IMG/VR virus record: IMGVR_UViG_3300037137_001027
Span: 32,001 to 96,000 of that record
Reading direction: 5' to 3' (one strand)
From: a virus
Length of the DNA stretch: 64,000 nucleotides
The notes beneath the pieces are model-generated. The model worked only from the letters and a program-made list of their open reading frames with translations. It searched no databases and was not told the DNA's origin. The translations under genes were made by a program, and so were the position numbers. Below, piece after piece: positions 41,354 through 63,434 of this stretch (the first letter of the stretch is position 1; every line of letters begins with the position of its first letter).

Positions 41354-41523
41354 TGTCTTATAGGTTTATAGAGGTTGTACTAAACCTATCATGGACGAAC
41401 GGCTTTTTTGTGAATGGGAGAATGGGTCTTACGTCAATTCTCTTATGGGCGGCGACCGCTTCTTAGAGGATTTGATGGAATTGGTACGGGAGTATGGTCC
41501 ACCGATCAAGGTGGAAATCCGTG

Positions 41524-44450: not shown

Positions 44451-44547
44451 CTAACAAAGGGGGGAAAAGGAACTTCCCCCCTTTTTATCTTAACTCCAAT
44501 TAAGGTTGTACTAATTGGAGCGTAACTTAACTCAAACAGGAGAGCAA

Positions 44548-45185: not shown

Positions 45186-45257
45186 GCCGCCATCTTCTAG
45201 TGGCAGGATGCTAGGCTTTCAACCTGGCGACGTTGGGTTCAAATCCCACTGGCGGTA
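45186..45257 (+). tRNA. tRNA-Glu(TTC), CCA not encoded
   Basis: GCCGCCA/TGGCGGT acceptor; CTAGG-CTTTCAA-CCTGG anticodon arm; GGG-TTCAAAT-CCC T-loop; one extra base in T-stem. Confidence 0.85.
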
Positions 45258-45260
45258 CTC

Positions 45261-45504
45261 GGTTGCTCCCATGTACCAAGTACAAACAGCGGCTTGGGGC
45301 CGTGAGCTTGGGCTAACACTCTCCCCAAGAGGGAGGGGGCGACCGCCTAACAAGAGCAGCAACAGAATGAAATGAGCCGTTAAGCCGATGCACACTGCCG
45401 AACCCTCCAGACGGCAACGGTTCCCGACGTGGCCCAATCACGGGCTAAGAAAGGCCAATCCCCTAGTGCAACCGTGAGCGGCGGAAGGGGAGAAAGTCAT
45501 TTCA
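45261..45504 (+). ncRNA. candidate structured RNA downstream of tRNA
   Basis: multiple nested and crossing complementary segments; no credible ORF. Confidence 0.45.
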
Positions 45505-45972
45505 CCTATGTTGAATTGCGGTTGTACTGAAAAGGTTGTGAGAGCTTTCTCTTTCTCGGAGGTAACATGTTGTACGGTTTGAAGGGGACGCATCCTGTCG
45601 ATGGTGAACTCTATCAAGAGTTTACCAAGAATGAGCGGGAGACGGCGGTAGCCATTGCACGCATTTGGCACGCCAAGGGCTGGAAGCCACTTTTGCTTGA
45701 TCGGTACTGGCATAGCTGCCGCATTTCTGCCCTGAACAATCTCATCGGGCAACGTCAGGCAGCGTAACTAGGAGCTAACCTTATGCAGCGCATAGCGCGG
45801 AATCCCGTAATAACGGTGCTGATAGTTGGGCGCTAGGGGCGTATGGACCCTAGCGCCTAAAATCAAAACCCACATATTTTTTGATTGGACGGGGGACCGC
45901 AAACCCCGTCTTTTTTGCACTTGTTAATTGCGGTTGTACTAATTACAATGAGACAATTAACCTGGAGGCAGC

Positions 45973-46413
45973 ATGAACGTAATGGTTGTGATGCAAGGGG
46001 CGTCTGGCTCTGGCAAGTCCACCGTGGCCGAAACCCTGAAGGCCATGCTGGAAGCGACTGGCCACAAGGTCGAAATCGTTTCGACCGACAAGGAATTCGA
46101 GGTCGAGGGTGTTTACACCTTTGACCCGTCCAAGCTGGGCGAGAACCATGCCAAGACGCAAAAGAAGGCACGGTATCACCTGGATGGGGGTACTAGCGTA
46201 ATCGTGGACAATACGAATACGCAAGCGTGGGAAGCGCGGCCCTATGTCCAAATGGCGCAAGAGCTTGGGGTTCCCGTGTTCTTTGTGCCGTGTCATGGCC
46301 GATTTAACAATACGCATGGTGTTCCCGCCGATAGGGTGGAAGCAATGCGCCAGCGGTGCGAACCTTTGTCGGTTCAGCGTTGTCTGGAGGCTAAAGCGCC
46401 GTGGGAGAAGTAA
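45973..46413 (+). CDS. P-loop kinase (AAA_33 / polynucleotide kinase-like)
   Basis: GASGSGKS, VSTD, VIVDNTN, HGVP. Confidence 0.85.
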   Translation: MNVMVVMQGASGSGKSTVAETLKAMLEATGHKVEIVSTDKEFEVEGVYTFDPSKLGENHAKTQKKARYHLDGGTSVIVDNTNTQAWEARPYVQMAQELGVPVFFVPCHGRFNNTHGVPADRVEAMRQRCEPLSVQRCLEAKAPWEK

Positions 46414-47371
46414 ACCGTATCGCTAACGCTCTAAGGACCATACAAGGGATTTGTGATCTTTATAGCGTTAGCGATTATACAGTTATAGACGCAACAAGGA
46501 TAGCCGTTTATAACTGCGAAAATGACAATTTTCACTTTTTCCGTTGGTCAAGCGACTGCTGCCGCTACATATATTGCGGTTCGCAGGATTGTATACCCAA
46601 TTGGAAAAATAAGAGGGTGGCGATTTAGTCCTCTAATTGAGGTTGTACTAATTTCATTGTAGCCAAACTAACCTGGAGGCGACAATGATTTTGAAACCGT
46701 GCGACCTGAAAGTGGACGACGTGGTTTGTTACTATCGCAAGAATAATCCCGAACGCGGGCCGTTCTGCGATATGGTTGTCAACCGCATTGACGGCGTGGA
46801 CATTTACTTGCGTCGGCCTTACATAAACGCTGACGGGGAAGCGAGGTTTGAAGAGTTATATTGGCACCGTGACGCCAATTTCCAATTCCTGCTGATCCGT
46901 AGGTAGTTGCGGTTGTACTGAGCAAGACGTGACGGATACCCTGGCTGGAGGAATGAAATGATCGGCCAAGACCTTGAAGACGGTGAACGGGAAGAAACCC
47001 CCCGCAAGGGCGGCATGATACTGGCCGAGGATGATTTGGAAGTGGGCCAGTATGTTTGCGTCTACAATCTGAAAAAGACGGATGAAGGCGCACCCATCAT
47101 GGGCCAGAGTTTGCATATCAAGGCAATCTGCCTGCCCTACTTTGTGGGTCAGCTTTTGTCTGATCCAAGCGAACCCGTTTTGACCCTGGACTGTCGATTC
47201 CTGAACTTGATGAAAGTTTCCAAGGAATTCGTGGATGCACAACGGGAAGGAGCCAAGACACAGCTAGAAGGGCCATCCATGATGCGCCCGCCGCAAAAGA
47301 GGAGAAAACAAAAAGAAGACGGGCAATAATGCCCGTCTGTTACCTCTAATTGAGGTTGTACTAATAAAGAT

Positions 47372-48472
47372 ATGAAGACCATCGACTATCTGCGAAGCGG
47401 GAAGACCCTGGATGACCTCCATACCGAACTTGGTATCGAAGTCAATCGCCATGATAGTTTACCCCTGGCAATCCTGAACTACTCTCAGATTGATTCGCCT
47501 AAGACTGATCCCATCGTGCGGGAATGCCGTGGGCTTGTCCTTAATTCTGAGGACTGGTCGCTGGTGGCGCGTGCCTTCCCCCGATTCTTCAATTGGGGAG
47601 AAGTAGCGGACGAAATGCCGCTGTTCAATTGGGATAACTCCGTTGCGCTGGAAAAGGTAGACGGTAGCTTGCTGCTGTTCTATCATTTCGCGGGCGAATG
47701 GCGTGTGAACACTCGCGGTAGTTTCGCGGGTATGGGCATGTTCAATACGCAATGGCAAGCGGATTATTTCAAGATGCCTATGTCCTTCACCTGGAAGGAT
47801 GGTATCTTGCGGGCGCTGGGTATTAAGGATTTGTCCGAATTGGACGCTTACCTTGACCCTGCCCTGTCCTACGCTTGCGAATTTTGCTCCCTATGGAACA
47901 AGGTCGTTCGGGAGTATAAGACGCCTTGCGTATACCAGCTTTCCGCGTTCGCTGGCGAAGAAGAAGTCGGGCCGCAATCCGTTCCGTTCTTCAAATCCGT
48001 TGGCCAGTATTCGCTCCGAACTGCTGATGAGGTAACGGATTACGTTAATTCGCAACCCGAAGCGACGTGGGAAGGTTGCGTTGTGAAGGATGATGCGCAC
48101 CGCCGATGGAAGATCAAGAACAAGCGTTATCTTGCCTATCATAAGATGAAGGGCAACGGCGATGCGCTTTATAATCCTTCCAACCTGTTGCCGTTCATCT
48201 TGGACGGGGAAGGCGACGAATTGCTTGCGGTCTATCCCGAAGTCAAGGAATGCTTCGATAGCTACAAGTCCAGGGTGAATAAGGCTTTCAGCGAATTGGA
48301 TGCGCTGTGGCAAGCCAATAAGGACATTGAAAACCAAAAGGAATTTGCCCTTTCGATTGTGGGCAAGTCGCCTTTCACTGGACTGTTGTTCAGCGCACGA
48401 AAGAACAAGACGCCGCTCAAGGAGGAATGGCGAAAGGCGGAAGATTACATCTTGAAAGGGTTGTTCAAGTAA
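47372..48472 (+). CDS. RNA ligase, T4 Rnl1 (RnlA) family
   Basis: ECRGLV, FPRFFNWGE, EKVDGS, EGCVV, KIKN; leaderless start 9 nt after motif. Confidence 0.9.
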   Translation: MKTIDYLRSGKTLDDLHTELGIEVNRHDSLPLAILNYSQIDSPKTDPIVRECRGLVLNSEDWSLVARAFPRFFNWGEVADEMPLFNWDNSVALEKVDGSLLLFYHFAGEWRVNTRGSFAGMGMFNTQWQADYFKMPMSFTWKDGILRALGIKDLSELDAYLDPALSYACEFCSLWNKVVREYKTPCVYQLSAFAGEEEVGPQSVPFFKSVGQYSLRTADEVTDYVNSQPEATWEGCVVKDDAHRRWKIKNKRYLAYHKMKGNGDALYNPSNLLPFILDGEGDELLAVYPEVKECFDSYKSRVNKAFSELDALWQANKDIENQKEFALSIVGKSPFTGLLFSARKNKTPLKEEWRKAEDYILKGLFK

Positions 48473-48514: not shown

Positions 48515-48574
48515 GGCTTAATTGAAGTTGTACTAATTCGGTTGTAGCGAACATCACCCTTCTGGAGAACTGCG

Positions 48575-48865
48575 ATGCGTTACGCTGATGCACGTTGCGT
48601 TTACACCGAGTCCCACGAAAACGGCCAGCACGTCTACGTCTACACTGGCCCCTGCGTTGTGACGGGCAAGCCCTACACCGTCAAGGTGCCTGCCGCTGGC
48701 TTGTTCGCCTATCGGCAGGGTGCATTCATTCAGGACGCCTTTCCCGCGCTGTCCAAGGATGATCGTGAGTTCCTGATTTCGGGAACAAGCCCCGAAGGTT
48801 GGGAACAGACTTTCGGCGGCGACGACGACGACGGCCCCGATTATGAAGGCGAGAACTACAACTAA
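48575..48865 (+). CDS. hypothetical cassette protein
   Basis: IQDAFPALSKDDREFLISG; GGAG RBS. Confidence 0.8.
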   Translation: MRYADARCVYTESHENGQHVYVYTGPCVVTGKPYTVKVPAAGLFAYRQGAFIQDAFPALSKDDREFLISGTSPEGWEQTFGGDDDDGPDYEGENYN

Positions 48866-49092
48866 GGGAAAGGGAGCGCCCACTCCCTTGTGATCCTCTA
48901 ATTGAGGTTGTACTGATATGGACATGAAAGCCAAAACGATCAAAGAGATTCGTGGCAGTTGCATCCCGACGATTCCAGTTGGGACTGAGTTTACCGTTGT
49001 CGCGGTTGTCGCGGGCTACGGTTATGCAACCTGTTTGGGGTTGGCCGTGTCGTCTGTTTGGTTGGATGAGTTTGTACCTTTAGGGGGCAGGA

Positions 49093-49305
49093 ATGACTGA
49101 GTTCTTTATCGAAGTGTATTTTCCGCCGAACACGTCCAAGAAAATGCGGGTGTTCAAGAAGAACACCCGCGATTGCCTTTCACCCGACATGATTGCATTG
49201 TTTTGGGTGAAGGCGAAGGACAAGGAAGAAGCACTGGCCTTGGCGCTGACGGGCGAAGCCTTAACCATAATGGCACCCGACGCCAAACAACTCCAGTTTG
49301 CCTAA
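49093..49305 (+). CDS. hypothetical protein, paralog copy 1
   Basis: near-identical to 49366..49593. Confidence 0.75.
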   Translation: MTEFFIEVYFPPNTSKKMRVFKKNTRDCLSPDMIALFWVKAKDKEEALALALTGEALTIMAPDAKQLQFA

Positions 49306-49365
49306 ACTGGAGTTCGGGTTGTACTAATTCAGTTGTGGCGAACATCCTCCTTCTGGAGAACTGCG

Positions 49366-49593
49366 ATGGTAGGAATGACTGAGTTCTATATCGAAGTGTA
49401 TTTTCCGCCGTACCCGAACACGTCAAAGAAAATGCGCGTGTTCAAGAAGTACGTCCGCGACTGCCTTTCCCCCAACCTTATCGCCCTGTTTCGGGTGAAG
49501 GCGAAGGACAAGGAAGAAGCGCTGGCCCTGGCACTCATGGGCGAAGCCTTCACCATGCTTTCACCAAATGCCAAACAACTCCAGTTTGCCTAA
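49366..49593 (+). CDS. hypothetical protein, paralog copy 2
   Basis: tandem duplicate behind its own cassette leader. Confidence 0.75.
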   Translation: MVGMTEFYIEVYFPPYPNTSKKMRVFKKYVRDCLSPNLIALFRVKAKDKEEALALALMGEAFTMLSPNAKQLQFA

Positions 49594-49673
49594 ACTGGAG
49601 TTCGCCCAATTGGGTAAATCAAGGTTGTACTAAATGAGTTGTGGCGGAATGATCCCCAACGGAGAACAGCAAA

Positions 49674-49988
49674 ATGCTGTACTGGAACTTCACGTTTGAC
49701 GGAAGTGACCGACCCTACAGAGGTTACGGCGACACGCTGGCACGGGCGACGGATGATGTGCGGGAGATGTTGGACGAGGGGTTGGCCCCCGACGAGGTTC
49801 GGAATTTGAAGGTGGTTGACGGGCCGCATGATTTGGCGCTAAAGACTGATTTTGGCCCCAATGGTCCGCAACCTGGCACGGTGGCCTACACTGCCTTTCT
49901 CATGGCGCAATTGTGTCCACCCGACGAAATCGGCCAGCCCGACGATTTTTGGGACGAATGGAAGGAGGACATGAAAGAACGCCTATGA
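49674..49988 (+). CDS. hypothetical cassette protein
   Basis: motif + GGAG leader. Confidence 0.75.
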   Translation: MLYWNFTFDGSDRPYRGYGDTLARATDDVREMLDEGLAPDEVRNLKVVDGPHDLALKTDFGPNGPQPGTVAYTAFLMAQLCPPDEIGQPDDFWDEWKEDMKERL

Positions 49989-51191
49989 TCCCAAGCTACG
50001 GGGAAGTCGTGGGAGAACCTGTCCCCTCCTTACATGGTAATGCGGACAGTAGTAACTTCAAGGGCAAAATAAAGATCAGGGGACCGCCCTGAGTTGCCCA
50101 TTATAAAACATTGTTGGGGCAGGGGACAATCCCCTGCCCTTTTTTATTTCCCCTGCAATCAAGGTTGTACTAATCAGAACATAACCCTAACCCTGGAGGT
50201 TGTGATGTCCGACGCGAAAGAAACTTTGGCCAAGTGGTATACTCATCTGGAATACTGCAAGGCAAAGGTGGAGCGTGGTGAGAAGCTGACCAAGGATGAA
50301 GACGATCAGCGCGACTTCATCGAGCAGAAGCTGGACGACTACCGTTCCGATTACTACGGGATGGAGAACTACTAACCGCAAGGGAGCGCCCACTCCCTAA
50401 TGATCTTTTAATTGCGGTTGTACTGATTGGGGCAGGAGGGAAACATGGAATTCTTGACTGGCAAGGACTATCCGTACCTTTGCGACAATTGCCGTGCGGC
50501 GATTGATTCGGTGGCGGCGATGTTTGCGGAAGGGGAAATGGCGGATACGGACGATGAAGAAGCGCCGTGCATGTACGTTTACGATAACGGCATGTATTGC
50601 GGTGGTCACGAATGCGTCAACTACCCGAAACTGTAATCACGGTTGTACTGAACAGGGCAGAGGCAACTTCAACGGAGATTGGTCATGGGCTGGAATCGCA
50701 AGCAATACGACAAGACGGGCAGGGTAGTACCCATTCACAAGGGCGAAAGGGATTGGACCCGTGAGCAAAAAGAACAAATCCGACAATTCGAGGACCGAAA
50801 TGCCAACGATCAACGAGGCACCGACGATGACGACGGCACCGAAAGAAGAAAAGCGGGATGAAATCGACCGAGAGTTCTATACCGAACACGGTGGCGAGGG
50901 CTAACATGGGCGGCAACATGGTTCGGCCCGATCTGGAAATGGTCCACAACGAAATGGGCTATTTCTACTATCAGGGCAAAGTCTACAACGTGGTCCGTCT
51001 CGCAAGCGGTTGGGAATTGCAACGCGGTTCCGAATCGCTTTATGCGGGCGAAAGCGTGGACGATTGTTCCACCTGGCTCATGGCGCAACTGACCTACTAA
51101 GGGGCAGGGCAACGGGATATAAACCGTTGCCTTGTTTTCTCCATCGTATCCTAATTGAAGTTGTACTAATTGGGGTAAGGAGAACCAAACA

Positions 51192-51380
51192 ATGTCACTG
51201 CTCAATCTGTCAACGCCAGTACGTTCGGAACGTGTCCGCGACTTCCAACCGCCTTGGCGAACCATCTTCGTCTACAAGTGCGGCACCTGCCAAAAGGAAA
51301 CCAAGGTACGCGCCAATTCTTTCCGTGGCAAAAGCGCCACGCCTGGCATTGGCGCAATCGTCTGCCCGCATTGTAAGTAA
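51192..51380 (+). CDS. zinc-ribbon cassette protein
   Basis: CGTC...CPHC. Confidence 0.7.
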   Translation: MSLLNLSTPVRSERVRDFQPPWRTIFVYKCGTCQKETKVRANSFRGKSATPGIGAIVCPHCK

Positions 51381-51504
51381 ACCACGTTTTTCCGAGTGGG
51401 CGTCGGAAACCGTCTTGCTCCGAACGGGCGTCGGAGCTTCTTCATCTTCCCCTGTAATTGGGGTTGTACTAATTAGGACATAACCCCAAACCCTGGAGAG
51501 TATC

Positions 51505-51864
51505 ATGGACCTGCACGAACGTATCAAGCTGTTTGTGACGACTGCCGACGAAGTGACCGCCAAGTATTGGCAGGAACAAGGTTTCACCTTCAGCCCACCG
51601 CCAAAGCATCGCGCCGACTTCATTTCCGACAAGTGGGCGCGAGTTGTCACCGTGGAAGACCGCAACGGGCAACCCAACGATTCCAGCGTGTTCGCCTTCA
51701 TCTGCCTGCAAGACGGCGCAACCAAAGCGCTCGGCACGCTCAAAACGGGCGACATTCACAAAGCCGCCAGCTTCAAAGCGCCCGCCAAGCACGCTCGCGG
51801 TAACGTGCTGAATGAGCTTTTCGCCAACTGCATCACGCCGCACGGTATCATCTACCTGAAATAA
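51505..51864 (+). CDS. phage protein (GDIHKAASFKAPAKHARGN motif)
   Basis: motif familiar from uncharacterised phage proteins; cassette context. Confidence 0.8.
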   Translation: MDLHERIKLFVTTADEVTAKYWQEQGFTFSPPPKHRADFISDKWARVVTVEDRNGQPNDSSVFAFICLQDGATKALGTLKTGDIHKAASFKAPAKHARGNVLNELFANCITPHGIIYLK

Positions 51865-51948
51865 CCGCAAAGGGAGCGCCCACTCCCCTAATCATCCCTT
51901 AATTGAGGTTGTACTAATCAGGGTGTAACCCTAACCCTGGAGAAACCC

Positions 51949-52254
51949 ATGAAACGCAAAATGAGTTCGCTGGTGCTTGTTGGACGCCGCTGGTTTGGTC
52001 GGACCAACGGCAACACCTACCATAGTTGCGAAATCATTGTGGACGGCAATTGCGTCCATAAAATCGACTACGCCTATGGCTACGGTCGGCAGTACGAAGA
52101 CAACGCGAAAATCTGGCTTGACCAGAACGGCTATCTCCCTGGACGGGAGAAACGCGACGGAACGCCAGGCGAGTCGCTTTGGCTGTACTGTGAGCGGTAC
52201 AGTATCATCTACACGAACACCGTTACCGACGTGGAAAGGAAGAAAGACCTCTAA
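51949..52254 (+). CDS. hypothetical cassette protein
   Basis: flanked by cassette repeats. Confidence 0.8.
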   Translation: MKRKMSSLVLVGRRWFGRTNGNTYHSCEIIVDGNCVHKIDYAYGYGRQYEDNAKIWLDQNGYLPGREKRDGTPGESLWLYCERYSIIYTNTVTDVERKKDL

Positions 52255-53048
52255 GGGAAGGGAGCGCCCACTCCCTAATAATCCTCTAATTGAGGTTGTA
52301 CTAATCCAGGCAGGAGGGAACAATGACACTGGAAAAGCGAGTCGCTGAAATCCGCCGCAAGCGGACCCTGCAAAACCGCCTGAGCAAGCTGCGGCTCCGC
52401 TACTTTGACCACGAAGACGCGGGCAAAGGCGACAAACATGAGCGCCTTGCCCGCCGTCTGATGAAGGCAATCATCAGCATACAATAGCGGTTGTACTGAT
52501 TGGAGTAAGGAGGGACAATCATGTGTCGATGGTGTCATAAACCGTGCGGCGAACGCGAATTTTGTGATGAGGTTTGCTTCGAGCTTCACGCCGAAGCGTG
52601 GGAAGAGTATCAGCGCTGGAGCGCTGCCCTTCCCGACGAACCCGACCCGCCGCAAAATGAATGGTGCGGCAGCAAGGGCAACAACTTTTAGCTCCAGGGG
52701 AAGCGGGGGGACAGCCAAACCCCCGCCTTTTCTATTTCCCTGTAATTAAGGTTGTACTAATTAAGATATAACCCAAACCCTGGAGGTCCAAAATGGACGA
52801 ACGCGATGAACTGCTGAATGACATGTGGAAGAACTGGAAGCCCTACAACAAGGCCGATAACGACAAGTGGCGCAGCTACGTTGTCTCCCAAAACGAGGCC
52901 AGCTTGCTCGAAACGGAAGCCGACTGCATTACCATCGTCCAAGGTGCGGATGGCCTGTACGTCCAGTAACACAAGGGAGCGCCCACTCCCATTATGTCCT
53001 AATTGGGGTTGTACTAATTGGGGCATAACCCTAACCCTGGAGGCTACG

Positions 53049-53537
53049 ATGCAATTCAGTGTCATTTACTCATTCGACGTTCCCGCCGATTTGTCCGTCA
53101 ACCAGTACAAGCCCCCCAAGTGGCGGCGCTGGGATTTGACGGAATGCGGCACCAGCGAAAACGATGACGGTGGCAAACACCGCAAGTATTGCGCCTTGCT
53201 CACGCAAGAGCAATTCGATGACTTCGTTGCCCATTGCGACCTGTACGCCGAACGCTGCCGCACAATGGGCAGTTTGGGAGCGCCTGGTTTCGGGTTCGGT
53301 TGGTCCCCCGCCGTGTCCTTCTGTAGTGACAACGGTATTTATGCAAACGCCTATGTGACGCCAGTAGGCAGCAAAGCGGAAATTGTCCAGTTTCTCCGCG
53401 AGCATGACCAGCTTGTGCCGCAAATTTTGCTGGATAGCGACAATCAGCAATACCTTTTCGACGGTATCGAAGAGGATGAAGGCCCGCAAGTATGGGATGC
53501 GCTCGAATCCCTGATGTGGGACAAATACGCGGCCTAA
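53049..53537 (+). CDS. hypothetical cassette protein
   Basis: start moved to follow cassette leader; ends YAA. Confidence 0.8.
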   Translation: MQFSVIYSFDVPADLSVNQYKPPKWRRWDLTECGTSENDDGGKHRKYCALLTQEQFDDFVAHCDLYAERCRTMGSLGAPGFGFGWSPAVSFCSDNGIYANAYVTPVGSKAEIVQFLREHDQLVPQILLDSDNQQYLFDGIEEDEGPQVWDALESLMWDKYAA

Positions 53538-53621
53538 AGGGATAGGGAGCGCCCACTCCCTAATTATCCCCTAATTGGGGTTGTACTAATTGGTGTATAA
53601 CCCTAACCCTGGAGGACTGCA

Positions 53622-53912
53622 ATGTACGCTCAGAACAAGTCCGTGCTGAAGATCGCCGCTGTCAACCCCGCACTGGCCGATAAGATCGCCAAACAGGGAA
53701 CCTTCCTCAGCGAAATGGACATCAACGAAGTCCACAAAATCGACCGCATGATGCTGGTGCTGGTCCGTTGCGGCAACGGGCGCTTTCTCTGCCCCGTCCA
53801 AGACGTGCAGCACTTCATCAACATCATCGAGGAACACGCCAAACTCAAGGAAGAGAAAGAGAAAAAGCCGTTCCAGGGCGACCACATCCGCGACGTGTCT
53901 TTCCCCGCCTAG
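53622..53912 (+). CDS. hypothetical cassette protein
   Basis: flanked by identical 72-bp repeats. Confidence 0.8.
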   Translation: MYAQNKSVLKIAAVNPALADKIAKQGTFLSEMDINEVHKIDRMMLVLVRCGNGRFLCPVQDVQHFINIIEEHAKLKEEKEKKPFQGDHIRDVSFPA

Positions 53913-53993
53913 CAGTAGGGAGCGCCCACTCCCTAATTATCCCCTAATTGGGGTTGTACTAATTGGTGTATAACCCTAACCCTGGAGACTGCA

Positions 53994-54482
53994 ATGAAGA
54001 CTCTCACGCTGGAAACGTTCCGCACCCAACTGCTGCAATGGCGTGGCGCTGCAATTGTGACGATTCACGCTGAGACGGTTCCCGATATGCGGAAGACGGA
54101 CAATCCGTATTTCGATAACCTTGTCAAGCGGAGCGCCGTCAATGGCGTCATCAATTGGGTTTACGAAAGCGCCGTCAATCGCCAGCGCGTGCGGGAAGAC
54201 TTGACGCCCGACTTCAGCGCTTTCCCCCGCAAGTGGGGCCAGCGCATCAATGGCACGCCCCTTGTGGAACATAAGGGGAACTATTACCTCGAAATGAAGG
54301 TGCAAAGCGCCTCGGCGCTTTACTTCGTCGGCACCAAAGAGGTAAGCCACAATGACGTTAGCGATTGGCTCCGTCCACCGTCCAAGCACCGTCAAGGCGT
54401 TTCCCGCGAGGTTATCTTGCGGGATTATGCTCTTGAAAATATCACTTGCTTCGTCTACGGCGAAGCCTACGCAATCCAGTAA
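53994..54482 (+). CDS. hypothetical cassette protein
   Basis: flanked by cassette repeats. Confidence 0.8.
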   Translation: MKTLTLETFRTQLLQWRGAAIVTIHAETVPDMRKTDNPYFDNLVKRSAVNGVINWVYESAVNRQRVREDLTPDFSAFPRKWGQRINGTPLVEHKGNYYLEMKVQSASALYFVGTKEVSHNDVSDWLRPPSKHRQGVSREVILRDYALENITCFVYGEAYAIQ

Positions 54483-54817
54483 GGGACGGGGAGCGCCCAC
54501 TCCCTAATCATCCTCTAATTGAGGTTGTACTAATTGGGGTATAACCCTAACCCTGGAGGCCGCGATGGATGTGAAGCTGACCGCTGCTGAGGTGAAGGCT
54601 GGAGCGATGGACAACTACGATCCCGCCCGCTACGATGCGCAGTTTCATTCCGATGGCAGTGTCACCTTGATTCCGCTGCTATGGTGGGATGATGCGAGCT
54701 ACGCACGTTATCAGAGCGCCGAGTAAAGGGAAGGGAGCGCCCACTCCCTAATCATCCTCTAATTGAGGTTGTACTAATTGGGTTGTAGCGACGATCACCC
54801 CTTACTGGAGAAACGCG

Positions 54818-55060
54818 ATGATTACCAAGGAATTCGCGGCTGGCTTGCACAAGGGCAAGACTCTGTATCACGCCACTGCCACGAACGCGGACGGCACGGC
54901 CAAAAGGTGCCGAATCAACGGCAAGCTGAAGATGTGGGTAACACGGCCCAATGAGTTCCGTATCCCCGTCAAACATGGCTTGTGGGATTGCTTCTATATC
55001 ACCCAAGACAACGCCAAGGAATGGCTCACCTACGACCGCACCGAACAAAAGGCCGCATAG
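54818..55060 (+). CDS. hypothetical cassette protein
   Basis: flanked by cassette repeats; ends KAA. Confidence 0.8.
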   Translation: MITKEFAAGLHKGKTLYHATATNADGTAKRCRINGKLKMWVTRPNEFRIPVKHGLWDCFYITQDNAKEWLTYDRTEQKAA

Positions 55061-55154
55061 TTAGGGGTGGGCAGGGGACCGCAAACCCTGCCTTTTTTTA
55101 TCCTCTAATTAAGGTTGTACTAATTGTGGTATAACCCTAACCCTGGAGGCGACA

Positions 55155-55373
55155 ATGATCTGGTGCATCACCGCGACGATTGAAAAGAAAACGAAAGACG
55201 GCGTGCAGACGAGTCAAATTCCCACGTTCTTCCTCGATGGCCGCGTGCAAGGTATCATGAACGAGGGACACGCGAAGTTCATCGGCGCTGAAATTATCAA
55301 CCCCATGCGGCTGAAAAATATCACGCTGCATGTGAGCGCCATCGCCGCTGACCGCGAAGTATGGGCAGCGTAA
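55155..55373 (+). CDS. hypothetical cassette protein
   Basis: flanked by cassette repeats; ends WAA. Confidence 0.8.
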   Translation: MIWCITATIEKKTKDGVQTSQIPTFFLDGRVQGIMNEGHAKFIGAEIINPMRLKNITLHVSAIAADREVWAA

Positions 55374-55706
55374 AGGGAAGGGAGCGCCCACTCCCATTAT
55401 ACCCTAATTGGGGTTGTACTAATTGGTGTATAACCCTAACGGAGAAAGCTATGAAGATCATCGCAGCGTATCACAAGGACAGTCGCAAGAATTTGACCCC
55501 CGAACAAATCCAGGCCGATATGCCTGCCCTGGAGAAAGAACACAAGAAAGCGCTGGCAGCAGAAGCAACGTGGCAATTCTTCGGCGGCATCATCGTCATC
55601 GGGGAACACGAATACCAAGTCTGCTAAGGGAAGGGAGCGCCCACTCCCATTATACCCTAATTGGGGTTGTACTAATTGGTGTATAACCCTAACACTGGAG
55701 GCTGTC

Positions 55707-55913
55707 ATGCGGTTTGAAGTGTGCATCAAGTACGGCAATCGCTGGAGCTACAAGGGCATTTACAGCGCTAACACATCACGCGCTGCTGCCCTGGACGCAA
55801 GCTATTCGTGGAACCGCAAGGTTATCCGCGTGCGGCCCGAAGATAGCCGCGACAAGTGGCTTGTGTATCGCTTCCAGTACGTCGGCACGCTAACCTCGTC
55901 CAGCGGAGTCTAA
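55707..55913 (+). CDS. hypothetical cassette protein
   Basis: flanked by cassette repeats. Confidence 0.75.
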   Translation: MRFEVCIKYGNRWSYKGIYSANTSRAAALDASYSWNRKVIRVRPEDSRDKWLVYRFQYVGTLTSSSGV

Positions 55914-55998
55914 GGGGAAGGGAGCGCCCACTCCCTAATCATCCCTTAATTGAGGTTGTACTAAATCAGGTGTAGCAACAACCCCAACGGAGAAAGCC

Positions 55999-56184
55999 AT
56001 GACTCGGAAAGATTACGAATTGTTCGCCAAGATGCTGCGGGAAGTCCCCAGCGCGGCCAAGCGGCTCGACTTCGCGGCGGAACTGGTCAAGGTGTTCGCT
56101 GCCGATAACGAACGCTTCAACGAGGCGACGTTCCGCAATGCGGCGGATTGCAAGGTATCAAGGAAGGGGGAATACGCCAGCTAG
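55999..56184 (+). CDS. small phage protein (MTRKDY...DNERFN)
   Basis: flanked by cassette repeats. Confidence 0.8.
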   Translation: MTRKDYELFAKMLREVPSAAKRLDFAAELVKVFAADNERFNEATFRNAADCKVSRKGEYAS

Positions 56185-56271
56185 GGCAAGGGAGCGCCCA
56201 CTCCCATTATCCCCTAATTGGGGTTGTACTAAATCAGGTGTAGCGAACATCACCCCTTTCTGGAGGCTACC

Positions 56272-56478
56272 ATGATCGTCTGTGACACGCCTGACAAAAT
56301 CGAAGCGTTTCGTCTGCTGGCGCTTCGTGGCGCTCTCAAGCTCGAATGCAAGGGCTTGCGGCGCAAGGGCCAATCGGTCGCCACTCTCGTCAAGCGGGAA
56401 TTCTCCCTGCGTGGCACCAATCAGCAAGTATTGGACCAATTCGAGGCTCTTTTGCAGGAAAGGTGGATTCTTGTCTAA
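56272..56478 (+). CDS. hypothetical cassette protein
   Basis: flanked by cassette repeats. Confidence 0.8.
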   Translation: MIVCDTPDKIEAFRLLALRGALKLECKGLRRKGQSVATLVKREFSLRGTNQQVLDQFEALLQERWILV

Positions 56479-56567
56479 GGGAAACGGGGAGGGACCGCTA
56501 ACCTCCCCAATCATCCCTTAATTAAGGTTGTACTAATTGGTGTATAACCTAACCCCTGGAGGCTGTC

Positions 56568-56828
56568 ATGAAAATCGTATCTATGTTCCAGACCTGTGAC
56601 GGCAAGACGTTCACGGACAAGAACGAGGCTCAACGCCATGAAAACGAGCATGAGGCGCTCGCCAAACTTCGCAGCTTACTGAATTCCGCAATTCAGTCGG
56701 AACTGACGCGGCGCGGCAACATCGACAACATCCTCCACAGTATCCTGATGGAGAGCGCGGAAGTCCGCAACATCCTCATCACCTACAACAAGAAGATGCC
56801 AAAGGAAGCGGCAAAGGTCGCCGCATAG
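56568..56828 (+). CDS. hypothetical cassette protein
   Basis: ends KVAA. Confidence 0.8.
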   Translation: MKIVSMFQTCDGKTFTDKNEAQRHENEHEALAKLRSLLNSAIQSELTRRGNIDNILHSILMESAEVRNILITYNKKMPKEAAKVAA

Positions 56829-56916
56829 GGCAAGGGAGCGCCCACTCCCATTATCCCCTAATTGGGGTTGTACTAAATCAGGTGTAGCGAACATCACCCC
56901 TTTCTGGAGAAGTGCC

Positions 56917-57231
56917 ATGACGAATCGCATCACTGCTGCCGTTGCCCGCATGGAAAAGCAAATTGCTGACCGTATCGCCAAGGGCTTGACAACGCAAGCC
57001 AAAGTCGATGCGCTGCACGCGCATCTCGACCTCGACATTCTGGAACACGCCAAGTTTCAGGAATACAAGTCGCTGGCCTACACCGAGGGCAAACTGACCC
57101 TCGATGAATCGCAGTCGCTGTACAACTTGCTGGGCAATACCGCCAGCACGTTCAACCGCCAACCCATCGCCGTCAAGTCCGTTCTCACCTCGCTGTTCGC
57201 GGAACTGCTCAAGATGCGCATGGCAAGCTAA
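56917..57231 (+). CDS. hypothetical cassette protein
   Basis: flanked by cassette repeats. Confidence 0.8.
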   Translation: MTNRITAAVARMEKQIADRIAKGLTTQAKVDALHAHLDLDILEHAKFQEYKSLAYTEGKLTLDESQSLYNLLGNTASTFNRQPIAVKSVLTSLFAELLKMRMAS

Positions 57232-57328
57232 GGGGAAGGGCAGGGGAACGCCAACCCTGCCCCTTTTATCCTCTAATTGAGGTTGTACTAATCTAGGTGT
57301 AGCGAGAACTCCTTACTGGAGAAACGCG

Positions 57329-57586
57329 ATGATCGCTGAATACGCGCTGGACAATCTGCTGGTTGGCCAAAAGGACCGCATCCTTGGCCTCTGCAATGCG
57401 GAGAAGTATGAGGAGGCGCTCTTGCTGCTCGACTTCACGGAGGAGATGTGGGCGGCTTGTCAGTACGCTTACAAAACGCGGGAAATACGCGACCGCATCC
57501 GCCGCGACCTAAACGAAAACGTCTGGAATGCGGAACACTGGAAACAGAAAGAGAAGTGGCAAAAGTTGCTCGTTACGGTGCCGTAA
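57329..57586 (+). CDS. hypothetical cassette protein
   Basis: flanked by cassette repeats. Confidence 0.75.
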   Translation: MIAEYALDNLLVGQKDRILGLCNAEKYEEALLLLDFTEEMWAACQYAYKTREIRDRIRRDLNENVWNAEHWKQKEKWQKLLVTVP

Positions 57587-57941
57587 AGGGAAGGGAGCGC
57601 CCACTCCCTAATTAACCTCTAATTGAGGTTGTACTAATTACAGTGTAGCGACAACCCCAACTGGAGAAGTGCCATGATGAATCATCTCTACGGTGAGAAG
57701 CTGGTTGACGGCAAGACGGTCACGCTGGATCACGCGGTACAGGAATTCACCGTCGTCATTCGTTCGTGCAGCGGGATTCACCCGCAAACGCTGAAAGACC
57801 TCATCGAGCGCAAGTTCGAGGTCGTCAGCATCAAGGCGGGCGAAAGCAAAGAGTACGTCAGCTAAAGGGAGCGCCCACTCCCATTATACCCTAATTGGGG
57901 TTGTACTAATTGGAGTATAACCCTAACCCCTGGAGGCAATC

Positions 57942-58199
57942 ATGGCGACTCGATTCATCATCAAGACGGACAATCCCGAAGGCATTCCCAGCACTTGGGA
58001 AATGAGCGATTTCGAGATGAAGCACGGCTTGAACGTCAACGAGGTGGACAAGCTGTATGTGACGTTCAAGGTGAAGAAGCGCCGCAAGATCAAACGGCTG
58101 CGCATCAACGTGAAAGTGCATCCTTGCGAGTTATGCGGTTCGCACGCATACGCAAGCGGCAGCGTCGGCAGCAAGGAATTCGACAAGGAACTTTACTAA
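57942..58199 (+). CDS. hypothetical cassette protein
   Basis: flanked by cassette repeats. Confidence 0.75.
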   Translation: MATRFIIKTDNPEGIPSTWEMSDFEMKHGLNVNEVDKLYVTFKVKKRRKIKRLRINVKVHPCELCGSHAYASGSVGSKEFDKELY

Positions 58200-58287
58200 G
58201 GGGAGGGCAGGGGAATGCAAACCCTGCCAATCATCCTCTAATTAAGGTTGTACTAATTGTGGTATAACCCTAACACTGGAGGCGGTC

Positions 58288-58476
58288 ATGAAGGTTTGCG
58301 AGCGATGCGGCTGCGAGATTGCCACGAAGGACGGGGACAACCTTTGCCGCGATTGCGACGAAGGCAAGAAGAAGCGGGACAAGCGGAATGCGTCCCGCAA
58401 AGCCCGCGAGGATGCGCTCCGCTCCATTGGTCTGGTCAAAGTCAAGGGCGCTCTTGGTGGAACGTATTGGGAATAA
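58288..58476 (+). CDS. zinc-finger cassette protein
   Basis: CERC...CRDC. Confidence 0.75.
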   Translation: MKVCERCGCEIATKDGDNLCRDCDEGKKKRDKRNASRKAREDALRSIGLVKVKGALGGTYWE

Positions 58477-58570
58477 GGGTAGGGGAGGACCGCAAACTCC
58501 CTAATTAACCTCTAATTGAGGTTGTACTAAATCAGGTGTAGCGAACATCACCCCTTTCTGGAGAAGTGCC

Positions 58571-58846
58571 ATGAAGCTGCAAAACGTCACCGTCGTCATC
58601 CTGGCCCGCGTCGAGAACAACGGCCTCAAGGTGGCCAGCGTCATCGACAATCCCGAAGTGCCGTCCAGCGGCGGCAAGCCCGTCATCGGCCCGCTGATGC
58701 GGCGGCTCATGTCGGTCAAGGAGGTCGTCGCGCGGACGGGACTGAGCAAGGGCAAGGCCGCTGATGCGCGGCGGCTCAACCCAATGACCTACCTGGCCGA
58801 CTTCGAGGGGCAATCGCCACTGGCGTTGTCGCTCCAGGCCGCGTAA
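58571..58846 (+). CDS. hypothetical cassette protein
   Basis: ends LQAA. Confidence 0.75.
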   Translation: MKLQNVTVVILARVENNGLKVASVIDNPEVPSSGGKPVIGPLMRRLMSVKEVVARTGLSKGKAADARRLNPMTYLADFEGQSPLALSLQAA

Positions 58847-59922
58847 CAATAAGGCGGTCGCTGCGGCAAGGTCGATCAGTCCACCCGTGGGACCGCAGGG
58901 CAGGGGGGGAACCCCTGCCTTTTTTGTTATCATCCCGTAATTAAGGTTGTACTAATTTGTGTGTAGCCAACAACCCCTTACGGAGAACTGCGATGCGACA
59001 CTACATCAGTCGGCAGAAGGCGCAGAGCTACGGCGGATTCATCTACTACCAGTGCAAGCGCGGCAAGTACATGCTGGTGAACTACCACGGCGAAACGATG
59101 TGGATGGGATACGTCCAGCCCCACGGCTTCTACGTCGTTCCCTTCGACCACGCCAGGGGCCAGAGCGAACAACTCAAAGACATGGTAGCATAACGTTAGG
59201 GGTGAGGCAGGGGACCGCAACCCTGCCTTTTTTCAATCATCCTCTAATTGAGGTTGTACTAATCTAGGTGTAGCGAACATCACCCCTTTCTGGAGCAATC
59301 ATGCTGACCAACACTTGCAAGCCCCGCTTTGCTACGCTGAATCTCACGATGGAACAGCGGTTGCAGCGCTGTGCCACGCCCATGACCAAGTTCACCCTGT
59401 TCAACGCACTAACGGGCCGCGCCATCAAGGGCGGCAGCACCATCAGCATCAACGGGATTCCGTGCATTCTCTCCAGCATTCAGAGAGAGGACGGAAGCGG
59501 CAGCAGCTTCAACCTCATCGTCTACGGCCCCGACAACCAGCCATACAAATGCTACTGCCGCACAACGGACTAAGGGGAAGGGAGCGCCCACTCCCATTTA
59601 CAAGATCATTGCGGTTGTACTAAATAGAGTAAGGAGGACAATCATGCACCAGACAACCGCAATCCGCCGCAACGACAAGGGCTTTATCATCAAGCTCGGT
59701 CCCGCGCCCGAACGCGGCAACCTGTTCCGCATTGCGGATCAGATCGGTATGGCCGCTGCTACTGACAAGCGCCAGCATCGCCGCCGTACCAAGGCCGCAC
59801 GCAAGGCCCGCCGCTGGAAAGCGGAGTAACAACAAGGGAGCGCCCACTCCCTAATGAGCCTCTAATTGAGGTTGTACTGATCGAGGTGTAGGACGAGTCA
59901 ACCCCTTTCAAGGAGCCATCGC

Positions 59923-60168
59923 ATGAACGCTCTGGTACAGGTCGGCGTCGGTGAGGTCATCGCGTCCCGCAAGCTGACTGGTGGCGGCATCCTGGTGCAG
60001 CGGCTTTGCTGCTCTTGCAAGCACGCTTTCTGGTCGGCCTACAACGAACACAAGAGCGCGTGTGCCGATTGCGACCCGCCCGCCAAGCGGCCCGAATCGC
60101 GGGGTATCGGTCGCAACCTCGACCGCAAGGCGAGCGACCGCCAATATCACGGTAGCAACGTGGAGTAA
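59923..60168 (+). CDS. zinc-ribbon cassette protein
   Basis: CCSC...CADC. Confidence 0.7.
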   Translation: MNALVQVGVGEVIASRKLTGGGILVQRLCCSCKHAFWSAYNEHKSACADCDPPAKRPESRGIGRNLDRKASDRQYHGSNVE

Positions 60169-60275
60169 CGCGGGGAAGGGCAGGGACCACAACCCTGCCT
60201 TTTCCTAATGAACCTCTAATTGAGGTTGTACTAATCAGGGTGTAGGACGAGTCAACCCTTAACCTGGAGACGACG

Positions 60276-60500
60276 ATGCACGATCACGGTTACACTCCCC
60301 CGCTCCCGTCCACCCGCGACGAACTGATCCGCGACACGAAGGCCGCGCTGAAGATGCTGAAGATGCTCCGCGACTTCGGCGTTGACCTCCGCGACAAGAA
60401 GATCATGGCGATCAAGCACCTCCGCACGCAGACGGGCCTCGGCCTCCGCGAAGCGAAGGAAGCCGTCGAGTTCGGCATGGAGTTGCTGGACGCAGCGTAA
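60276..60500 (+). CDS. ribosomal L7/L12 C-terminal-like small protein
   Basis: KKIMAIKHLRTQTGLGLREAKEAVE. Confidence 0.75.
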   Translation: MHDHGYTPPLPSTRDELIRDTKAALKMLKMLRDFGVDLRDKKIMAIKHLRTQTGLGLREAKEAVEFGMELLDAA

Positions 60501-60612
60501 CACGTTAGGGGAGGGGCAGGGGAACGCCACCCTGCCCTTTTTATCATTACAGTATCATTGAGGTTGTACTAATTGGGGTGTAGGACGAGTCAACCCCTTG
60601 CGGAGAACTGCG

Positions 60613-60927
60613 ATGCATACCACCGACTCCATCCGCGACCTCCTCACCCGCAACCCCAAGGCCGTTTACAGGGCGCTTGTCGTCCTGTTTGAGCGGCAGA
60701 CGGACGATGAGAAGGAGAGCGAGGAAACCAAGCACGACAACGGGCGCGGCTTCAATTACCGCGATGCCAAGTTCGGTTCCGACTTGGCGCAGAAGTGCAT
60801 CCGCCCCGACCCGCGCTACCCTTCCCCGCTCTCCGTCAATCAGCTTGCTGCGGCCCGCCGTATGCTGCACAAGTACGCTGGCCAGCTTGCCCGCATTGCC
60901 AACGGGCAGGAAACGGTCGAGGTATGA
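60613..60927 (+). CDS. phage protein (HDNGRGFN...LSxxQ...KYAGQL)
   Basis: motif familiar from uncharacterised phage proteins; terminator at 60935-60959. Confidence 0.8.
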   Translation: MHTTDSIRDLLTRNPKAVYRALVVLFERQTDDEKESEETKHDNGRGFNYRDAKFGSDLAQKCIRPDPRYPSPLSVNQLAAARRMLHKYAGQLARIANGQETVEV

Positions 60928-60973
60928 CCAAACGACCCGCCCGCAAGGGCGGGTTTTTTATTACCAATTTAGT

Positions 60974-60991
60974 TCCAGTACAACCTCATTT
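60974..60991 (-). promoter_or_regulatory. single inverted copy of the promoter motif
   Basis: reverse complement reads AAATGAGGTTGTACTGGA. Confidence 0.7.
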
Positions 60992-61277
60992 AATGCCAAT
61001 TTATACTGTACAAACTAGCGCCATGCCTGGAATGCGATTAAATCGCTTTTAAGCCACTCTAACCCTAAAACCGACCCGACATAGCCTTGACCCATTTGCG
61101 CTCGTCTCAAGCGATCCTGGCGCGATTACGGGCCATTTGAACCTCGAACCTCGACCGACTTTTGCGCCGTTCCATTCGCCTATGGTACGCTGGTATATGG
61201 CACCGTGCTAATGGTACTCTAATTGAGGTTGTACTAAATCAGGTGTAGCGAAGATCACCCCTTTCTGGAGTACGACG

Positions 61278-61493
61278 ATGCCGCGTTGCGAAGATTACCC
61301 CTGCTGTGGCCATGAGGCGGGTTGCTGCCCGAACTACGACCGCACTGGCAAGCAGACCGACATGGTTTGCACCTGCGGCGCTCGCCTGCCGATCACGGCG
61401 CGCTACTCCATCTGCGAGACGTGCCTCCGTGACGACGACGACGACGGCCCCGACTATCGGGGCGACGACTGGCAGGAGGTGGACGAATACTAG
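61278..61493 (+). CDS. Cys-rich cassette protein (CEDYPCCGH)
   Basis: flanked by cassette repeats. Confidence 0.8.
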   Translation: MPRCEDYPCCGHEAGCCPNYDRTGKQTDMVCTCGARLPITARYSICETCLRDDDDDGPDYRGDDWQEVDEY

Positions 61494-61598
61494 GGGAAGG
61501 GCAGGGGAACGCCACCCTGCCCTTTTTTGTTATTAACCTCTAATTGAGGTTGTACTAAATCAGGTGTAGCGAACATCACCCCTTTCTGGAGTACGACG

Positions 61599-61955
61599 AT
61601 GGGAACCCGCCTCTACCCGAACACCACCGACCGCGCGGCCCTGGAAGTTCTCGCTGGCGTTCCCGCTGGCACACACGCCCGCATGGACGAAATGGCCAAG
61701 CGGCACGCCGAGGCGAAGGTTGACCCCTTCGACCAGGAGGCGGGTTACGCGCAGTGGAAGGAGCGCAACGACGACGGGCCGATTGGCGACCTCGACGCCT
61801 TCCTCACCTTCGGCTGGGGCAAGTTCCGCCCCGTGGACGGGATCGGGGAGGACTGCGCGGGCCATGAGGACAACCTCGACCGCGCGGCTCGCCTGTTGCG
61901 GGCGAACGGGATCGGTGCGAACGTGGCAATGACGGGGGGATTGCACTGGGGCTAG
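61599..61955 (+). CDS. hypothetical cassette protein
   Basis: flanked by cassette repeats. Confidence 0.8.
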   Translation: MGTRLYPNTTDRAALEVLAGVPAGTHARMDEMAKRHAEAKVDPFDQEAGYAQWKERNDDGPIGDLDAFLTFGWGKFRPVDGIGEDCAGHEDNLDRAARLLRANGIGANVAMTGGLHWG

Positions 61956-62053
61956 GGGAAGGGCAGGGGAACGCCAACCCTGCCTAATTAACCTCTAATT
62001 GAGGTTGTACTAATTACAGTGTAGGACGGATCACCCCTTACGGAGTCTGACCC

Positions 62054-62281
62054 ATGTTCGCACTGTACGTTGACAACGGCACTGGTGAACTCAGCCGCGC
62101 AGTCTTCACGCTGGAAGAGATGCGCAACTACAGTGGACCTCGGCCCACTTACCTCCGCATTGGCGAGAGCGGGGAGCGCGTTTCGTGGGATACGTTCAAG
62201 GCCATTTGCGCGACGTGTCGGCCCGACGACGCGGACGACGACCCCGACAACCTCTTCGTCTATCGCAGCGACGACAACTAG
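62054..62281 (+). CDS. hypothetical cassette protein
   Basis: flanked by cassette repeats. Confidence 0.75.
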   Translation: MFALYVDNGTGELSRAVFTLEEMRNYSGPRPTYLRIGESGERVSWDTFKAICATCRPDDADDDPDNLFVYRSDDN

Positions 62282-62371
62282 GGGAAGGGAGCGCCCACTC
62301 CCTAATTAACCTCTAATTGAGGTTGTACTAATTGGGGTGTAGGACGAGTCAACCCCTTACGGAGTACGATC

Positions 62372-62827
62372 ATGGAAGCCGCACTGAAGCTGACCGATGC
62401 CAAGCCCGTCCGCAAGCCCCGCACGGCCCGCAAGGTCAAGCCCGTCGCCGCCGCGATGAAGCCCGATCACCTCCAAGCCTACGCCACCGTGGGCGTCATG
62501 TTCATGGCCGTTCTGTCCGCGCTGCTGAACGGCTACGCGAACGCGGCGAGCGCCGAGGTTGCGTGGGCAGGCTGGGGTATGGGCTTGGCCGTTCCCGTTA
62601 TCATCTTGCTCTTGGGCAAGGTTGCGGGGTTGCTCTACAAGCGCGGGCAGAAGCGCGCTGCCCTTGCTACTGCCAGCGCTGGCATTGGCTTGCTCGCGCT
62701 GTCCGTTTGGCACGTTAGCCTTTCCATCGCCGCCTTGACGGGAAGCCCGATCATGCTGGCAATGCCAATGGCGGTTGCAATCGACTGCGGTTTCGTCTGC
62801 TGCGAGGTAGCGGCCTTGCTCGACTAG
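62372..62827 (+). CDS. multi-TM membrane cassette protein
   Basis: four hydrophobic segments. Confidence 0.8.
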   Translation: MEAALKLTDAKPVRKPRTARKVKPVAAAMKPDHLQAYATVGVMFMAVLSALLNGYANAASAEVAWAGWGMGLAVPVIILLLGKVAGLLYKRGQKRAALATASAGIGLLALSVWHVSLSIAALTGSPIMLAMPMAVAIDCGFVCCEVAALLD

Positions 62828-63434
62828 GGCAAGGCAAGGGCAGGGGAACGCCAACCCTGCCCTTTTTGCTAATGATCCTCTAATTGAGGTTGTACTAAAT
62901 CAGGTGAGGACGAGTCACCCCTTTCTGGAGACGAACGATGAACTACGCTTACTTGCGGCTCGCGGCTTGGATGAAGATGATGCAAGGGGGCGAGCGGCGG
63001 CGGTGGGCGCGGGTCTGCAACTACCTTGACGCGAGGATGATGCGCTCTTGACCAAGGGCAGGGGAACGCCAACCCTGCCTAATTAACCTCTAATTGAGGT
63101 TGTACTGAATGGGGTAGGAGGATACCCCTGGGCATCGCCCATGCCCATTGAATTGTTATTAAGGTTGTACTAACATAATTAACATATGATTAATTAATTT
63201 CATTTTCTGTTTAAAAAAGTAACATCAGGGTGCCTACCGTGGACGCCATACCAGTGAGTTCTTTAAAAAAGTCAATTTCAAAATTAGCCGCCAGGGATTT
63301 TTCAAAATTCCACACATATCTTAAAAAAACTAATTTTTCCATTTTCCAAAAAATATACCAATCCAAAAAATTACCATTAGTAAAGTTTTGAAAAAATCTA
63401 CAATGGATTTTTCAAAACTTTACTATATTAAGGT

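Follow-up and report, generated by a model that had tools for sequence, protein, structure and literature searches.

Which process would place some forty small, unrelated genes of a virus one behind the other, nearly every one of them set between near-identical repeats? The question is raised by a 64,000-nucleotide (nt) stretch of the IMG/VR virus record IMGVR_UViG_3300037137_001027 (called the window throughout; bases 32001-96000 of the 159.5-kb record, referred to as G000), for which an earlier note had proposed that single-gene cassettes are exchanged by crossover in a shared promoter core, GGTTGTACT, as in an integron. Coordinates are those of the window unless marked as record positions. 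The repeats and genes were analyzed together with related metagenomic contigs (G001, G002, G003 and L043-L046), all genomes compared being incomplete contigs. The reading that we favor, with a probability of about 0.78, is that the repeats are regulatory units similar to the promoter-stem-loop cassettes (PeSLs) of T4-type phages and double as substrates of general homologous recombination, without a site-specific, integron-like system. The principle is already known from the T4-type PeSLs; new are the unusually regular case, the unfamiliar promoter and the clade of huge phages in which it is found.

The core motif RGTTGTACTRA occurs 89 times in the window, every copy lying on the + strand (0.06 copies expected by chance). 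The whole record contains 95 copies, none of them on the - strand, over ~83 kb (record positions 11860 to 95163). Core spacing is 1-4 kb at the left and shrinks to ~200-670 nt within the dense array:

1336..47364, + strand: sparse part of the promoter system, 46 more cores before longer or multi-gene units, many with an ATG exactly 7 nt past the core (leaderless)
48526..63173, + strand: dense array, 43 promoter cores and ~44 small open reading frames (ORFs) of 37-162 amino acids (aa), all on one strand

The interval that had been delimited as an array does hold these 43 units, but it is merely the dense end of the system. A unit consists of an optional hairpin, the 18-bp promoter TAATTGrGGTTGTACTAA, a leader, of which about four types occur, and a small ORFan; 41 of the 43 dense units contain a single ORF and two contain two ORFs (48907 and 50642). 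In agreement with the earlier note, the repeats stand between single genes, start at the stop codon of the upstream gene (TAA/TAG followed by GGGRAAGGG) and are composites of hairpin, promoter and leader. Hairpin A (GGGAGCGCCCACTCCC; GGGAG-CGCCCA-CTCCC) is present in 19 copies in the array and has a 5-6 bp stem, an invariant CGCCCA loop and no T-run, hairpin B (GGCAGGG...CCCTGCC) is present in 13 copies with a T-run after 10/13, and 11/43 units have another hairpin or none. The leaders are ATAACCC (14 units), GTAGCGA (14), GTAGGAC (6) and a short Shine-Dalgarno (SD) leader (6). With its flanks, hairpin A folds at about -12 kcal/mol. For the type B hairpins with a T-run, which a terminator scan detected, the folding energy is -19 to -23 kcal/mol. 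Scan and folding identify them as canonical intrinsic terminators, and hairpin A is probably an attenuator or a stabilizer of the 3' end. An Rfam search of the repeats gave no family matches. Examples of the modules are:

53545..53560, + strand: hairpin A without T-run, starting 8 nt past the stop codon, -12.1 kcal/mol with flanks
53572..53589, + strand: 18-bp promoter block, TAATTGGGGTTGTACTAA
53597..53621, + strand: leader type 1 (ATAACCCTAACCCTGGAGG plus spacer), with the ATG at 53622
61494..61530, + strand: hairpin B with T-run, a predicted canonical intrinsic terminator, -22.8 kcal/mol, z -3.5

The 41 cassette proteins have a mean column identity of 7%, and no paralogues were found at E<1e-4 among the promoter-proximal ORFs. 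Only two of the 41 have a Pfam match (39/41 without), and 12 match PHROGs of unknown function.

Which part of the repeat would start transcription? At the sparse sites the information content is limited to a single 18-bp block, tAATTGaGGTTGTACTAA, upstream of which nothing is conserved. An ATG follows exactly 7 nt past the core at 14 sites (~1.5 expected, p=4e-10), and at the remaining sites the leader begins at the position where the leaderless sites have their ATG. A conserved gene shows the same geometry:

47354..48472, + strand: RNA ligase preceded by the core, ATG at 47372 and 7 nt past the core, protein of 366 aa starting MKTIDYLR, PHROG 562

Because of this fixed distance from the core to the ATG or leader, the RNA ligase included, the 18-bp core appears to mark a promoter, with a predicted transcription start ~8 nt downstream and many leaderless mRNAs. 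It does not match the sigma-70 consensus: sites of that consensus are found four times in the array (7.8 expected) and never inside the repeats, and the promoter logo has no -35 element. T7-like RNA polymerase and beta/beta' Pfam domains were not detected in either G000 or G003, although the PF00940 control was silent everywhere, which renders that profile uninformative. Such a promoter would define a new phage promoter family, TAAnTnnnnTTGTAC[CT], characterized by many leaderless transcripts and by lineage-specific variants of the core. A small palindrome before the core (CCTC-TAATT-GAGG) was considered as an N4-type promoter hairpin and dropped, the complementarity being missing in G003 and in the L043 group.

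The fixed distance to start codons and the dissimilarity to the sigma-70 consensus would equally suit an RNA processing signal at which long transcripts are cut into monocistronic, partly leaderless mRNAs, and so would the capacity of leader type 1 to pair with the core in read-through RNA. However, in ten array units a canonical intrinsic terminator is located just upstream of the motif, so that transcription must restart; the motif has no conserved structure partner at the sparse sites, and a strand-specific motif ~8 nt before the first transcribed base is typical promoter geometry. We consider it most improbable that the motif is a processing signal in place of a promoter.

Leader type 1 (GTATAACCCTAA) and the promoter (TTGGGGTTGTAC) are nearly reverse complements of each other, for instance at 53572-53615 and at other type-1 leaders, and the two are predicted to form a hairpin of 8-12 bp (mean -12.2 kcal/mol, compared to about -6 to -7.5 kcal/mol where another leader type is present). 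The promoter half CTCCAG of the L043 group is also complementary to the SD context CTGGAG. Such pairing would be possible only in read-through RNA or in single-stranded DNA and might silence or process read-through transcripts.

If the repeats are expression units, have they also been exchanged among each other? The longest exact identities between different intergenic regions of G000 are 84, 72, 68 and 60 nt, compared to a median of 14 over all pairs, and the regions that share them precede unrelated genes, as the earlier note had remarked for its 72-84 bp identical repeats. The longest is found in this pair:

56175..56265 and 56819..56909, + strand: repeat pair, 97% identical over 91 nt with 84 nt exact, followed by unrelated genes

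The types of hairpin and leader show no statistical linkage (chi-square p=0.41), which bears out the mix-and-match combination that had been proposed for these two modules. The promoter-proximal variant is associated with the type of leader (Fisher p=6e-4), and leaders of one type tend to lie together in the array (permutation p=2e-4). The closest relative, G001 (63 kb, found by a DNA-pattern scan), has the same core and 76-90% nucleotide identity to record positions 89266-149468 of G000. In only 4/14 pairs of orthologous genes was the best-matching upstream module the positional orthologue, and likewise in 4/14 for the leader; in the alignments, hairpin A is swapped for B and leader 2 for leader 1 before genes that are 85-93% identical. 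A tandem duplication within the array gives a further case:

49086..49604, + strand: tandem gene duplicate, copies at 49093-49305 and 49366-49593 with 86% nucleotide identity; promoter and leader of the second copy are 92% identical to those at 48527

The exact identities of 84 and 72 nt sit in a genome whose genes are only ~80-90% identical to those of the nearest relative, and for this reason suggest recent copying. The mosaic upstream regions, the unlinking of hairpin and leader, the clustering of leaders and the promoter and leader acquired by the duplicate together indicate frequent, proximity-biased exchange among the repeats. A purely regulatory view would instead attribute the similarity to selection on promoter, untranslated region (UTR) and terminator, and the changes in gene content to random illegitimate recombination filtered by selection. 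It can draw on the functional constraint on the promoter block and SD context and on the retention of leader type 1 across sub-lineages with different cores. Yet the exact identities of 84, 72 and 68 nt also cover spacer positions that are free to vary in other copies, orthologous genes carry different hairpin and leader types, and the leader types are spatially clustered.

Comparison with more distant relatives extended this picture. Five related arrays were recovered, which fall into three sub-lineages, each with its own variant of the core. A search with the RNA ligase retrieved G003 (341 kb) together with G002 (129 kb), the latter being the same phage as G003. In G003 the core has diverged to AATTGCAATTGTACCA and occurs ~81 times, all on one strand, with the same density gradient, the same two kinds of hairpin and leader types of its own. 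Homologues of the cassette protein encoded at 62372-62824 gave three more phages (L043/L044, which represent one phage, L045 and L046) with ~34 cassettes each and a third core, AACTCCAGTTGTACCT or AACTGCGGTTGTACCT. Common to all cores is only TAA..T....TTGTAC(C/T). L043 and L044 are 100% identical without structural difference, L044 having N-gaps at intergenic regions. A pattern scan for hairpin A plus core found nothing in metagenome contigs and only G001 among viral contigs, and a search for related loci with the cassette protein at 53994-54479 yielded no relatives. In every genome all copies of the core are of that genome's own variant, even before orthologous genes, and from this uniformity we infer that the promoters evolved in concert. 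Selection on regulation would not by itself place a lineage-specific core in all ~80-95 promoters, which requires concerted evolution.

The comparison of G000 with G001 covers the last ~17 units. Fourteen units are common to both, one of them translocated, three are found in G000 only and two in G001 only, the differences being located at four places:

57866..58226, + strand: A57900 cassette, 85 aa; an unrelated cassette takes its place in G001
59575..59600, + strand: single hairpin A; G001 has two copies around an extra cassette, B2220, with the indel junction within the hairpin repeat
60172..60545, + strand: A60225 cassette (hairpin B, promoter, 74-aa gene, hairpin B); three cassettes further downstream in G001, where it replaces A62889
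61172..61530, + strand: A61228 cassette, 71 aa, Cys-rich; missing from G001, with ~70-nt direct repeats of promoter, leader and ATG on both sides

At the B2220 indel, two copies of AAGGGAGCGCCCACTCCC flank the cassette in G001 and one remains in G000. For the relocated A60225 the homology spans from the upstream to the downstream hairpin B, and the left junction at the new site lies just past the ATG. Of the 42 cassettes compared between G000 and G003, 14 are common and two of these are out of order; the proportion of ORFs with a G003 homologue is 30% in the dense array and 55-70% in the sparse part (Fisher p=5e-4). Among L043, L045 and L046, the cassettes L043_8139 and L043_7172 are translocated, one pair of adjacent cassettes is swapped, and L043_7768 has different contexts in L043 and L046. 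The L043_8139 move shows repeat homology on both sides, the homologous block stretching between the repeat upstream and the promoter core downstream. Judged from these alignments, the differences between relatives are whole units whose ends lie within repeats but in varying modules: hairpin A, hairpin B and the stretch from promoter through leader to ATG. The earlier expectation that gain, loss and reordering would have their breakpoints in the repeats is thereby borne out, whereas a crossover specifically in the GGTTGTACT core finds no support in the mapped junctions. Direct repeat copies that bound indels, with one copy left behind, again run counter to purely regulatory repeats, which we regard as an unlikely explanation.

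Could the turnover be the work of a dedicated, integron-like system, in which an unrecognized recombinase acts on a fixed site (the hairpin folded in single-stranded DNA, or the core) to excise and insert circular cassettes? The array resembles integron cassette arrays in being unidirectional, in its many small, unrelated single-gene units and in recombination at unit boundaries, and its regularity and single direction equal those of an integron. The hairpin A loop is moreover invariant in 19 copies with a close variant in G003, and one indel junction lies exactly in hairpin A. On the other hand, searches for tyrosine and serine recombinases (PF00589, PF00239) found none in G000 (160 kb) or G003 (341 kb), both incomplete records, with positive controls matched in both searches; an integrase was thus not seen, as had been noted. 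No IntI was found in these two records, and neither an attI nor an attC site (an imperfect palindrome of 57-141 bp) was seen. The G000 hairpins differ from attC in having 5-8-bp stems in 16-25 nt, in being optional and in that many are terminators; about a quarter of the G000 units and many L046 units have no hairpin, and those of type B are ordinary terminators. Integron cassettes depend on one Pc promoter, while here a promoter belongs to each unit, and the junction positions are not fixed but spread over at least three modules. The array lacks every defining integron feature that we examined, and we see hardly any likelihood of a dedicated site-specific system.

Since each unit has its own promoter, no attC-like site is present and the junction positions vary, general homologous recombination between the PeSL-like repeats is the explanation that we prefer to the integron-like system put forward earlier. 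The region would then be a hyperplastic accessory-gene region, presumably early or middle, of a huge uncultured myovirus, in which each small gene forms a self-contained expression unit and the repeats primarily serve to express the genes. Right after the preceding stop codon, an optional hairpin would terminate transcription (type B with T-run) or attenuate it or stabilize the 3' end (type A). The phage-specific, contiguous 18-bp promoter would start the next transcript ~8 nt downstream, and a 5'UTR from a small set of C/A-rich types with CTGGAG(G) at their end would lead into the ORF. The ~90 copies in direct orientation, near-identical over 60-100 nt, would be substrates for the general homologous recombination of the phage. 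Crossover, whether unequal or ectopic, and gene conversion could take place in each of the modules (hairpin, promoter or leader) and produce deletion, duplication, insertion, replacement and relocation of units as well as mosaic intergenic regions. Expression timing, recognition factor, recombination enzymes and circular intermediates belong to the inferred part of this scheme. G003 encodes a 393-aa RecA/UvsX-like protein.

Several points count against this explanation. The assignments of promoter and start site draw solely on geometry, and no factor that would recognize the promoter was identified, the sole sigma-like ORF found (a small sigma region-2 ORF in G003) resembling a late, gp55-type factor. 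A simple function as terminator does not account for the strictly conserved CGCCCA loop of hairpin A. Given that all genomes compared are incomplete, the DNA not sampled could contain a recombinase. Finally, where genes are dispensable, the indels that remain viable are likely to end between genes under any mechanism, which inflates the apparent association with repeats.

How far does the system agree with known ones? The PeSLs of T4-type phages (RB49/phi1, T4/PST, KVP40/nt-1) are composites of ~60-100 bp in which a terminating stem-loop is combined with an early promoter of the sigma-70-like type and with an SD sequence; they begin at the upstream stop codon and are concentrated before ORFans in hyperplastic regions (Arbiol et al., 2010, PMC2839356; Comeau et al., 2014, PMC4122927). 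Between relatives they bound indels and replacements, and these events, like the mini-circles, are attributed to general homologous recombination, with no dedicated recombinase (PMC2839356, PMC4122927). The G000 repeats share the composite of stem-loop or terminator, promoter and SD that starts from the upstream stop codon, and they bound indels and replacements between close relatives. The array likewise has the trait of a hyperplastic region preceding ORFans, as seen in the Pfam-less proteins and the low conservation in G003 given above. In contrast to the -35/-10 sigma-70 promoter of PeSLs, the G000 promoter is a contiguous, phage-specific 18-bp block, whose core varies between sub-lineages of the clade while being uniform within each genome. 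The array is also far more regular (43 consecutive units, 95 copies on one strand), its few discrete leader types constitute a third exchangeable module, and the host of the repeats is an uncultured huge phage, probably not a member of the T4 subfamily. Clusters of very small early genes, all or nearly all of which have a strong promoter of the phage type and a ribosome binding site and often a terminator, are also found in the host-takeover module of the Bacillus phage SPO1 and in the early regions of T4, T5 and phiKZ; their promoters are of the host sigma type or are read by a known phage RNA polymerase. These modules are not known to have near-identical intergenic repeats of 70-90 nt or cassette translocation between close relatives. 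A partial parallel is the halovirus HF2, a virus known for mosaicism whose intergenic repeats are reported to carry promoters (PMC8707807). HF2 differs in being an archaeal virus with AT-rich archaeal promoters.

PHROG scans of G000 identified rIIA, NAD synthetase, two RNA ligases, tRNA nucleotidyltransferase, baseplate wedge proteins and an 1840-aa tape-measure-like protein. The closest GenBank phage by rIIA is LR756511.1 (uncultured, 595 kb, 59.6% aa identity), nearer relatives being found only among metagenomic contigs, one of them of 341 kb. On account of this gene content and of the 595-kb and 341-kb relatives, we conclude that G000 is a fragment of a huge uncultured myovirus. The comparison with T4-type myoviruses was made by gene content, with rIIA, RNA ligases and baseplate wedge in G000 and the gp55-like sigma and UvsX/RecA-like protein in G003; the rIIA, the RNA ligases and the two G003 proteins suggest T4-like strategies. 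An array piece of 8 kb gave no megablast match to GenBank phages, and LR756511.1 has zero copies of either core and no evident repeated motif near rIIA.

Modular shuffling of the PeSL type, described in cultured T4-type phages, is thereby extended to a clade of huge uncultured phages, and six arrays, which belong to five phages of three sub-lineages, show by direct comparison that cassettes are gained, lost and relocated. The lineage-specific cores imply concerted evolution of ~90 promoters with their recognition factor. The arrays furthermore amount to a catalogue of ~40 short, independently expressed ORFans per genome, candidates for host-takeover or anti-defense functions, and the repeats to natural promoter, UTR and terminator parts.

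The base composition follows the array. The G+C content at third codon positions (GC3) of the cassette ORFs climbs from ~0.45-0.55 across the sparse part to 0.65-0.75 within the array, with 0.8-0.89 at the distal end, and the GC content falls to 38-40% in the next module past the array; the arrays of all relatives, including G003 and L043/L045/L046, rise and fall in this way as well. Host-like codon use of early genes, biased gene conversion and foreign origin are possible causes. A bolder combination would be a dedicated cassette mobilization without any known recombinase family (e.g. on hairpin A as folded single-stranded DNA), coupled to an undescribed 18-bp TTGTAC promoter system whose factor co-evolves with ~90 promoters per genome, with the clade-wide GC3 gradient as a footprint of very frequent local recombination through biased gene conversion; we rate it as highly unlikely.

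In the sparse part, a promoter core follows each of two RNA elements, a tmRNA-like element at 41524-41662 (Rfam RF00023, 50.4 bits, 139 nt compared to a 374-position model) and a tRNA-Glu(UUC) at 45186-45258. The array itself includes a non-coding stretch of ~300 nt (60928-61226) with few mismatches to G001, which appears better conserved than most cassette genes. It contains a bidirectional terminator (60934-60955) and a reverse-oriented core-like sequence, GGTTGTACTGG (~60975-60990, - strand), and is possibly a small RNA.

Among the cassette proteins, the 74-aa product of the translocated cassette (60276-60500) contains part of a C-terminal domain of ribosomal L7/L12 type (residues 39-65; PF00542, E=7.8e-7) and could be a mimic directed at translation factors. 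The 151-aa protein at 62372-62827 has 109 homologues with 46-79% identity across many metagenomic contigs, including a Gemmata sp. genome and L042, a motif-free, unrelated phage contig of 60% GC that was rejected as a relative of the array; this distribution hints at exchange outside the clade or at a planctomycete host. The proteins at 61278-61493 and 48575-48865, otherwise unrelated, have in common an acidic C-terminal DDDDGPDY motif, the corresponding 45-nt coding stretch being 80% identical.

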